DNA of 64,000 nucleotides from Octopus vulgaris (lineage: Eukaryota): NCBI GenBank assembly GCA_951406725.2, contig OX597815.1, forward strand, positions 126,976,001 to 127,040,000, written 5' to 3'. Below the pieces are notes generated by a model. That model ran no database searches, was not told where the DNA came from, and was given only the letters and a program-made list of their open reading frames with translations. Each line of letters opens with the position of its first letter. The stretch's first letter is position 1. Below are positions 37,592 through 57,916 of the stretch, piece by piece. Made by a program: the position numbers and the translations under genes.

Positions 37592-38573
37592 GTATGTATG
37601 TATGTATGTATGTATGTATGTATGTATGTATGTATGTATGTATGTATGCATGTATGTATGTGTATGTGTCTATGTATGTATGTATGTATTTATGCATGCA
37701 TGCATGCATGTATGTATGTATGTATTTATGTATGTATGTATGTATGTATGTATGTATGTATGTATGTATGTATGTATGTATGTATGTATGTATGTATGTA
37801 TGTATGTATGTATGTATTGCTTTGTTGGGATAAAAATATAGAAATATGAATCATGAAATCTGAATACTAAAATGCATCCAGGCCAATAATTTACCATTTC
37901 TATCAACTCATACTTCTTCACAATCCTATAAGGCAGTTTTATGCATTTTGTTAACTTGCTCAAAATTGCTTTGAAATCTCCCTCAATACATGCTTATCTC
38001 ATATGCATTTTAAAAACTTCTGGGCTTAACTAAACCAAAAATCTCAAAATTGATGGATGGTTACAGCTAGAATGCCTTTGATTATACATTAGCTCAATCA
38101 GAGCTGACCTGGGTCTAAACATCATCATCATTTAATGTCCACCATCTATGCTGATATGGGTGGGATGGTTTGGCAGGAGCCAGTCAGGCAGAAGCTTGCA
38201 CCAGACTTCTGTGATTGTTTTGGCAGGATTTTCACAGCTGAATACCCATCCTAACCCCAGCCACTCAGCTGAGTAGTTTTTATGTGGCACAAGCACAGAT
38301 GAAGTCAGTATTGGCAAAGTTTTTACTGCTGGATGCCCTTCCAAACACCAACCTCTTTACACTGTGGATATTTTTTAAGTTGCACCTGCACTGACAGGGT
38401 CACTAAGTACTTGCAAGACAAAAAGATAAAAGACAATTTTGTGAGGGAAGGGACATTGGAGGAAGTGATCTTGTGTCAGATGAGGAAAGGTTATAGTAAG
38501 ACAGAGAGAGAGAAAAACAGGTGTCTTGCTGTAGAGGAGGTACAAGGGTATCCAGCCAGATAATTGTCACTCT

Positions 38574-39122
38574 ATGTGACTAGGGTGTTAAAAACACCTA
38601 TATTGCTAGAAATAAGAGCTAAAATTCTCTAATGCTGTGGATAATGATCATGAATGAAAACATATACGTTAACAGGGACCATAATTGTCCGAAAAATGCT
38701 GACTGAGAATTCTTAAGACTGACATCAGTCTGGGCAATGTAGGTGTATTTTAACTCCCTAGTCACATTGAGTAACAATTATAATTCTCCTTTTTGGTGAA
38801 ACATTGCAACCAGTTGTTTATATTAATTTTGTGTATACACATTAGCGAAGCACTAAGTCATCCATTAATTTGATGACAGAAACATATATACTAATAGAGA
38901 AATGGGTCTGGAAAAGGCTGAATGCTGAACTGGCTTAACTGATGATGGCAACGGAAATTGCCAAAACTGACGTCAGTCTTAAGAAATCTCAGTCGGCATT
39001 TTTTCAGACAATTATGGTGCCTGTTAGTGTATGTTTTCATTTATGTGCATTAACTACAGCATTAGAGCATTTTAGCTCTTATTTCCAGCAATGTAGGTGT
39101 TTTTAAAACTCTAGTCACATTT
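38574..39122. repeat. Fold-back (38574-38729 / 38966-39120) with an internal direct repeat of the terminus, abutting (TA)n
   Basis: atgtgactag...aaaacacctatattgctagaaataagagctaaaa pairs with ttttagctcttatttccagcaatgtaggtgtttt...ctagtcacat. 38734-38768 repeats 39088-39121 directly. Confidence 0.92.
38934..38983 (+). ncRNA. Type I hammerhead ribozyme motif (G12 mutated)
   Basis: cttaa-CTGATGA-t-ggcaa(cggaaa)ttgcc-AAA-ACTGACGTCAGT-C^ttaag. All three stems are perfect and the site is GUC. The GAAA is changed to AAAA at a CpG. Confidence 0.8.
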
Positions 39123-39139
39123 AATGACATTTATATATA

Positions 39140-39191
<52 letters not shown>

Positions 39192-39576
39192 TATACATAT
39201 ACATACATACATACATACATACATACATACATACATACATACATACATACATACATACATACATACATACACATATATATATTTGAAAGTCTATGAGGAT
39301 TGCTTAATAATTTTTGAAATGCAAAAGTGATATTTAAAAAACAAATTTTTTTTTTAATGTTATGAAATCTATTATGAGGGGGTTAATATATACAAACAAT
39401 GATTTTTTTTTTTCAGCTTCCATGTACTAAATCCACTCATAAGGGTTTGGTTGCCCCAGCACTATAGTAGAAGACATTTTCCCCCAGTGCTATGCAATGA
39501 GTCTGAACCCCAAATGAAAACCACTTGGTTGGGAAGCAAGCTTTTAACCATAGAGTTGCACCCACACATGCACACA

Positions 39577-46739: not shown

Positions 46740-47830
46740 ACAAACCTAACAACACTGGCCACCCCATCGTCTCTACCTGCAACTACCCGACCGAACTCAT
46801 CTCCAGATATCTTGACCATGTCCTTGCCCCCCTAGTGACTTGCTTCCCTTCTCACAACCATGACACTAACCATGCACTTCATTTGTTTAACACTTTCTCC
46901 TGCCCTTCTGGCCCCTCTAAACTTCTCTTCACCCTTGACATCCAGAGCCTTTACACAGTGATCCTTCATCATGAGGGGCTACGTGCACTCCAGCATGCCC
47001 TTGACCTTCGACTCAACTCCAAACCTGACACATCCATACTCATTCATCTAGCCAAACTTGTCCTCTCACACAACCGCTTCTCGTTTGCAGGTTTTTGGAG
47101 TGGCCATGGGAATGAGAATGGGCCCCAACTATGTGAATCTGTTCATTGGCTATGTTGAGACCCAAATATTCTCAAGTTTCACTGGTCCCATACCCAAACT
47201 ATACAGCCGTTATATTGATGACTGTAACGGTGCAACCTCACTCTCTCACAAACTCCTTCCTCTCTTTTGTCAAATCTTTCCATCCTGCCCTCCACTTCAT
47301 CCTACATTGATATCCCCTCACCCCTATCCACACTGCCCTTGCCAGAGTATGTTCTGTGGACCGTGCATCTGCTCTCCCCTGAACCAACCCCATCGTCTCC
47401 TGTCTCCCATTTCCCTTACATAACACCCACCACCCTACCTCTCGAATGCACCATTATCCGAGCCTTCTGGTGAATCCAGTCTGACCCCTCCACTTTGCAC
47501 ATCTTCCCTAACCGACCTCTTCACTTCACACATCTTCCCTAACCAACCCCTCCCATCCTTCAAACGATCCCACAAACTACGAGACCTCTTAGTCCACAGC
47601 TTCTTCTTTAACCCAACATCCCAACCGGCTTGTTCCCCTGCTCCTGCCCATGTTGCTGCACTTGCCCTTGCCTCTCCTACACCCCCCTCACCAGCACCCA
47701 TCATCGACCCTATCACATCACCAACTCCTTCACCTACACCTCTACCTATATCATCTACTGCATCTCCTGCTCTCTCTGCCCTTCTCTATACATTGGGCAA
47801 ACAGGACGCTGCTTGGCTGACCAGTGGTCA
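46738..47830 (+). pseudogene. Penelope-like element remnant (RT + GIY-YIG endonuclease)
   Basis: Begins right after (TA)n. Reads HKPNN.GHPIVS..PTELISRYLDHVLAPLV, LFTLDIQSLYTVI, GVAMGMRMGPNYVNLFIGYVE, YSRYIDD and IIYCISCSLCPSLYIGQTGR. Confidence 0.92.
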
Positions 47831-57758: not shown

Positions 57759-57916
57759 TCTTACCACTAAGAAATATTCCCAAGAAAAATTTAGCAAACA
57801 ACCAAAACGTAATTGAGCAAGACAAAAGAAAAGCAATAAAAATTTTCTTTTGTCTTGCTCGATTACGTTTTGGTTGTTTGCTAAATTTTTCTTGAGAACA
57901 TTTCTTAGTGGTAAGA
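57759..57916. repeat. Hairpin (57759-57832 / 57843-57916) with a unique tail 57590-57758 reaching (TA)n
   Basis: tcttaccactaagaaat...gagcaagacaaaagaaaa pairs with ttttcttttgtcttgctc...atttcttagtggtaaga. Loop is 10 nt. Confidence 0.93.

Follow-up and report, generated by a model that had tools for sequence, protein, structure and literature searches.

The element at positions 38560-39135 of the analysed window belongs to a dispersed hammerhead repeat family of Octopus vulgaris with a non-coding unit of 354 bp, and is an old copy that has decayed. The window is a stretch of 64,000 nucleotides (OX597815.1, 126,976,001-127,040,000), taken from a genome of 2.8 Gb that is rich in microsatellites. 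The family carries a type I hammerhead and is probably a non-autonomous retrozyme, whose copies would have been reverse-transcribed and inserted by a Penelope-like protein with reverse transcriptase (RT) and GIY-YIG domains.

The window copy is composed of two pieces in opposite orientation. The forward copy (38734-39135) contains one 354-bp unit and 49 bp of the next. The full unit (38734-39087, plus strand) is a circularly permuted, non-coding monomer, spanned over its whole length by the family profile, and the start of the second unit (39088-39135, plus strand) is 84% identical to 38734-38782. This direct repeat had been described as 35 bp long in a first-pass annotation of the window; it is real and lies at a spacing of 353-354 bp, and its length is 49 bp. 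The second unit stops at the short 3' end of the family, without the tail of ~55 bp. The upstream piece is an inverted 5'-truncated copy (38560-38738, minus strand) that was recovered by profile hits and by alignment to 38957-39134 (155 of 180 columns identical, 86% identity to the forward copy, E 2e-55). This arm covers unit positions of about 224-354 plus 1-48, and only the 3' half of the hammerhead lies inside it. It had been said to end exactly at the 12-bp palindrome of stem III; the arm exists, and its end is placed ~9 bp further, into stem II. An alignment search for further copies of the arm within the window found none. The alignments of the inverted and forward copies overlap at GCAAT (38734-38738), a junction microhomology formed by the end of one and the start of the other. 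Downstream, a (TA)n/(TACA)n microsatellite (39136-39281) is the likely insertion target, as microsatellites are frequent at the 3' ends of the family.

The order of inverted arm, hammerhead and (TA)n reported earlier therefore holds, all parts being present and the microsatellite beginning at 39136. The claim that no coding capacity is visible also stands, the longest stop-free frame in the window copy having 55 codons. On the other hand, the ~165 bp taken for unique sequence belong to the repeated family unit, and the architecture is incomplete, since many copies have ~55 extra bases at one 3' end, whereas the window copy is short-ended on both sides. A target-site duplication was not seen on inspection of the window copy by eye. 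Another sequencing run, possibly the source of the assembly, contains 38943-39082 with one difference, so that the locus did not arise as an artefact of assembly. The left flank of the element contains pieces of two high-copy repeats (38300-38360 and 38445-38560). Elsewhere in the window, a near-perfect 122-bp hairpin (57777-57898) has a sub-threshold match to a miRNA model on both strands and is perhaps a small inverted-repeat element.

The type I hammerhead of the window copy (38934-38983, plus strand) was delimited from its sequence, the family alignment, pair counts and counts at G12. The numbering of hammerhead positions and the role of G12 are well established. Read on the plus strand, stem I (38934-38938/38979-38983) is followed by the core CTGATGA (38939-38945), a T inserted between A9 and G10.1 (38946), stem II (38947-38951/38958-38962), an A replacing G12 (38963), stem III (38966-38969/38974-38977) and the GUC cleavage site (38976-38978). 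Stem III and its ACGT loop together make the 12-bp palindrome (38966-38977). The three stems and the GUC site had been recognised earlier; the extra T at 38946 is added here. An Rfam search of the window and of the element gave no hammerhead hit, and at an intact copy (L047) the same approach gave a sub-threshold hit to the type III model (25.3 bits against a threshold of 48.5). The window copy is predicted not to cleave; it is a fossil.

The search of the octopus genome for DNA similar to the unit returned 2100 candidate places, 40 of which were scored. After removal of duplicates, 79 loci were retained for the analysis of architecture and 95 distinct loci for divergence. Genome-wide, the motif search matched 83 cores that retain G12 and lack the extra base, 29 that carry the extra T (of which one has no relation to the 354-bp unit) and eight in which G12 is substituted; the controls gave 0 in each case. 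Two subfamilies are distinguished, one with the extra T and a GUC triplet, to which the window copy belongs, and one without the extra base and with a GUA triplet, which accounts for about half of the family. The family majority unit has a GC content of 36%. The monomer of ~355 nt proposed earlier is borne out by the 354-bp unit, whose register is kept in all loci that extend beyond a single unit. The forward piece is longer than 360 bp in 42/79 loci, longer than 500 bp in 13/79 and longer than 700 bp in 1/79. The expected tandem ~350-bp copies thus occur as partial tandems, and long arrays were not found: a tight genome-wide pattern matched three loci against two control matches, and a loose pattern matched mostly unrelated repeats among the matches listed (100 of 210).

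The window copy has one hammerhead only. Three loci (L061-L063) carry two GAAA-stem III motifs each, 346-361 bp apart, and two intact cores are present in each of L052, L062 and L063, with some damage to stems or triplets in every one of these loci. L052 holds 2.3 units, and since two of them differ by just 2%, a later duplication of DNA appears to have produced them. Other duplications involving hammerheads were noticed. In L117 (C25:4010948-4013979), 112 bp with the entire hammerhead recur ~12 times in tandem within a copy of a sister subfamily, and a core base is changed in several units; the array can be described as a minisatellite born from a ribozyme. An 87-bp tandem array at C7:11043070-11044471 has a hammerhead-like motif of a different family in its unit, and this motif is also dispersed (L192, L193 and L199). 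L002 has its hammerhead region twice (oriented 498-613 and 1671-2021), the duplicate lying 1.2 kb upstream with just 4% divergence, and pieces of a young Penelope-like family with a 717-aa protein lie between and beside the two regions.

The conservation of the ribozyme was evaluated in 37 pieces whose loci had been chosen for their general DNA similarity, blind to the motif (seven are second pieces of the same loci). The core is intact in 22 of the 37; it shows 21 mismatches, where 47 would be expected if the base-specific rates of the rest of the unit applied. The G12 site is G in 30/37 and A in 7/37; together with the 83 exact motif matches in the genome, this answers the question, set earlier as a test, of whether other copies have G12. 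Covariation was assessed in an alignment of the window copy and 30 motif-picked copies. Two-sided changes occupy 35 cells against 19.6 in shuffles (0/500 as high), mainly in stems I and II, where alternative pairs are found in stem I (U-A/C-G 16:9 and A-U/U-A 17:7) and stem II (A-U/U-A 22:5); the pair-count control ignores relatedness. Pairing reaches 81% in the true stems and at most 41% in slid controls. Two of the five pair-count measures were no better than shuffles. Because compensatory changes and core conservation extend across the subfamilies, selection on the ribozyme while the family was active is implied. The unit is predicted to fold as a circle with z-scores of -9.6 for the family majority, -2.8 for the window copy and -1.6 to -4.2 for six single copies. 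In the predicted minimum-energy fold, the 5' half of the core pairs with the 3' strand of stem III, and the active fold is placed 5-6 kcal/mol above this blocked fold in the window copy, L047 and L036, and 12 above it in L046.

The G12 site lies in a CpG. In pieces with the extra T, G12-to-A changes number 6/35, compared with loss at other CpGs in 57/276; in the set without the insertion, they are rarer (4/91) than other CpG losses (35/241). The loss of G12 in the window copy is read as ordinary CpG decay. A spreading, inactive sub-lineage marked by G12-to-A was considered and rejected, as the rate equals that of other CpGs and the two arms of one locus (L093) differ at G12. The copies with G12-to-A cluster weakly (permutation p 0.019, with pieces that are non-independent). 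Among the genome-wide motif matches, G12 is lost in 9/24 copies with the extra T and in 8/91 without it (Fisher p 0.0015).

The ends of the copies are variable, follow the register of the unit and do not coincide with the cleavage site. An inverted 5' copy adjoins the forward piece in 35/79 loci, a proportion inflated by the choice of the first 30 loci for their likeness to the arm-bearing query, and is absent in 44/79. The inversion breakpoints of the 35 loci are scattered over the unit. A link between the inverted arm and the stem III palindrome was rejected, since about 3/35 breakpoints fall at or beside it. The 114 scored 3' ends concentrate at two preferred places ~55 bp apart, with 35 ends at profile positions 31-60 and 39 at 91-105; both places are TA-rich, which blurs the exact position. 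Where both ends could be scored (35 loci), 17 loci combine a short and a long end, three (the window copy included) have two short ends, one has two long ends, and the others are broken or ambiguous. Within 30 bp, 59/93 family 3' ends have a microsatellite, compared with 188/1580 random places (12%). According to the published description of Penelope-like elements (PLE), such elements form partial tandems, bear an inverted 5'-truncated copy, often have a tail of 30-40 bp at one end and are biased to (TA)n (PMC8557442). A later account explains the tail as the sequence separating two internal sites at which RT can start (PMC11167929).

The family is old. The two arms of the window copy differ at 19/161 aligned positions (12%), and the median difference between distinct loci is 22% (3671 pairs). 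The family is therefore likely extinct, and a young burst of copies was not seen among the 95 distinct loci. The closest pair of loci (5% apart) lies on C22 and may reflect a duplication; the next closest differs by 9%. Repeated pieces differ by 18% within a locus and 22% between loci, and the within-locus pairs fall below the between-locus mean in 39/53 direct and 47/55 inverted cases, which hints weakly that each insertion had a single template.

Penelope machinery is present in the genome in the form of two young, autonomous PLE families. One (L084:2745-5090 and L084:1406-2485) has an intact 781-aa ORF with RT and GIY-YIG domains and a CxxC linker, an open frame of 359 codons upstream and many full-length ORFs. 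The other (L139-L158) is very young, with a 717-aa ORF, a tandem period of ~2.59 kb and many 100% identical copies; a degenerate hammerhead-like motif is located near its 3' end. The window itself holds a decayed reverse-transcriptase fragment (46760-47225) that matches the 781-aa protein (E 1e-10). The search for GIY-YIG copies gave 6136 candidates in the genome, of which 150 were scored. The comparison with the unit covered 66 PLE-type loci, 46 from these 150 listed candidates and 20 from one further family, where the unit profile scored no match stronger than E 0.5 and revealed no shared end. As autonomous partners, the 781-aa and 717-aa families and 20 more GIY-YIG loci were tried and rejected, having no DNA in common with the unit. 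The loci tested had no PLE protein match in the unit or in a frame joined to it. PLE fragments occur 0.4-1.5 kb from eight loci, downstream, on the opposite strand or behind the inverted piece, and look like separate insertions. In C20, two copies 4 kb apart were considered as paired pLTRs; this was rejected, the pair being a local duplication of 1.45 kb with 96% identity.

In the preferred reading, RNA would have been transcribed from a source locus of at least two units, and the hammerheads would excise 354-nt monomers able to circularize. A Penelope protein may have nicked AT-rich DNA and primed cDNA synthesis at internal points of the RNA that lie ~155 or 210 nt past the cleavage site, at unit positions of about 46 and 100, and would have copied more than one unit. 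A second priming or a template switch could then have generated the inverted 5' piece. After insertion, the window copy decayed, so that its arms are now 12% apart, and G12 was lost at the CpG. A more specific form of this proposal can be advanced as a tentative one, rather less probable than even. It holds that a ribozyme-processed 354-nt circle served as template for rolling reverse transcription with two fixed start points inside it, leaving the tail and the inverted head, and that the family is a missing link between retrozymes and PLE. Such a circle would have no detectable homology to the living Penelope families of the genome. Contigs presumed to derive from RNA contain scattered fragments of the family and a 354-base go-back joint, and the joint is also found in DNA-like runs.

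The 354-bp tandem register fits a circular RNA and an uncleaved multimeric transcript equally. We consider it unlikely, although to be taken seriously, that the family is a non-autonomous PLE derivative that moved as such a transcript, with the hammerhead as a passenger and no circular RNA; this alternative differs from the preferred reading only in the form of the template. In its favour, the inserted ends lie off the cleavage site, and the blocked fold is predicted to be more stable than the active one. For the one PLE tested in vitro, cleavage is reported to have been dispensable and unprocessed RNA to have been the main substrate (PMC11167929), and 8/9 Xenopus retrozyme dimers are given as uncleaved in vitro in a preprint (bioRxiv 2026.07.22.740005). 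Against a passenger role stand the compensatory changes and the core conservation across subfamilies, with the selection that they imply, and the strong self-pairing predicted for the unit as a circle.

That the copies are 5'-truncated ends (a pseudo-LTR with its tail) of an old autonomous PLE, whose ORF copies are decayed or unsampled, is improbable, even though the hammerhead, the inverted copy, the tail and the (TA)n targets are marks of an autonomous PLE end in the published description (PMC8557442), and PLE fragments are found near eight loci. What lies upstream of the unit is another 354-bp unit, up to ~2.5 units, and not an ORF; the fragments lie on the downstream side, in the opposite orientation or beyond the inverted piece; and the 66 PLE-type loci have no DNA in common with the family. 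Whether the unit is just the end of a long autonomous PLE had been set as a test, and no Penelope ORF is joined to it in the loci tested. Judged from its sequence, the 354-bp family is not an autonomous PLE. Taken by itself, the window copy resembles an element with long terminal inverted repeats, and it lacks an Rfam hammerhead hit, so that a foldback DNA transposon or a satellite-derived repeat with a chance hammerhead pattern might be suspected. This is extremely improbable, and the variable arms and the covariation refute it for practical purposes: the arm is absent in 44/79 loci and its breakpoint varies, the stems covary, and the motif controls gave 0 against 83 matches. The earlier reading of a tandem element in the retrozyme size class is accordingly supported, both findings named beforehand as fatal to it (no other copy with G12, or a unit that is always the end of a long PLE) having turned out otherwise.

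The family is an extra case for the proposed mobilization of retrozymes by PLE and defines no new class. A retrozyme-sized unit with a Penelope insertion signature is also a testable template for an assay of trans-mobilization. If the rolling-circle reading were true, the family would provide genome-level evidence for the trans-mobilization of retrozyme circles by Penelope proteins, and unit positions of about 46-100 would be the RNA segment recognised by the Penelope protein. The rarity of the architecture was initially overrated, since the copy is decayed and earlier studies already give the same arrangement (PMC8557442) and the unit size (PMC7229834). A literature search found no description of the 354-bp family, which repeat databases or preprint supplements may list.

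The unit falls within the size range of retrozymes (150-450 bp) and, like them, is low in GC and non-coding. With animal non-LTR retrozymes (Cervera and de la Pena 2020, PMC7229834), whose units measure 350-390 bp in the mussel, the family has in common a non-coding, low-GC 354-bp unit with a type I hammerhead, a head-to-tail register, a predicted self-paired circle and coexisting autonomous PLE. Unlike these retrozymes, the family is old, its copies mostly comprise 1-1.5 units and have inverted heads, the searches turned up no long arrays, and the window copy has a single hammerhead with G12 lost. Coral and axolotl retrozymes likewise differ from it, as no long tandem array of the 354-bp unit was found.

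The likeness to EN+ Penelope-like elements, as presented by Craig et al. 2021 (PMC8557442) and Frangieh et al. 2024 (PMC11167929), includes the partial tandem, the inverted 5'-truncated copy, the optional tail at one end, the (TA)n targets and a hammerhead upstream of two preferred 3' ends. The tail measures ~55 bp in the 354-bp family and 30-40 bp in Penelope-like elements (PMC8557442), and the two classes of 3' ends resemble the pair of positions at which RT was mapped to start in vitro on an anole element (PMC11167929). Unlike the EN+ elements, the family has no RT/GIY-YIG ORF, and its period is 354 bp instead of ~2.6 kb or more. With the PLE hammerheads described by Cervera and de la Pena 2014 (PMC4209133), the family shares the type I topology, a palindromic loop 3, the G10.1-C11.1 pair and, in the subfamily of the window copy, the extra nucleotide between 9 and 10.1. 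Helix III has four pairs, unlike the 0-2 pairs of PLE hammerheads, and a dimer was perhaps unnecessary. Penelope-like elements have been proposed, not shown, as the mobilizers of animal retrozymes (PMC7229834; bioRxiv 2026.07.22.740005). The same relationship, with retrozymes as non-autonomous PLE derivatives that are mostly dispersed monomers, is put forward by Li, Clavereau and Pollet (bioRxiv 10.64898/2026.07.22.740005). Their proposal is based on co-occurrence and pLTR homology in vertebrates, whereas for the 354-bp family, in which no homologous pLTR was found, it is the geometry of insertion that points to a Penelope-like protein.
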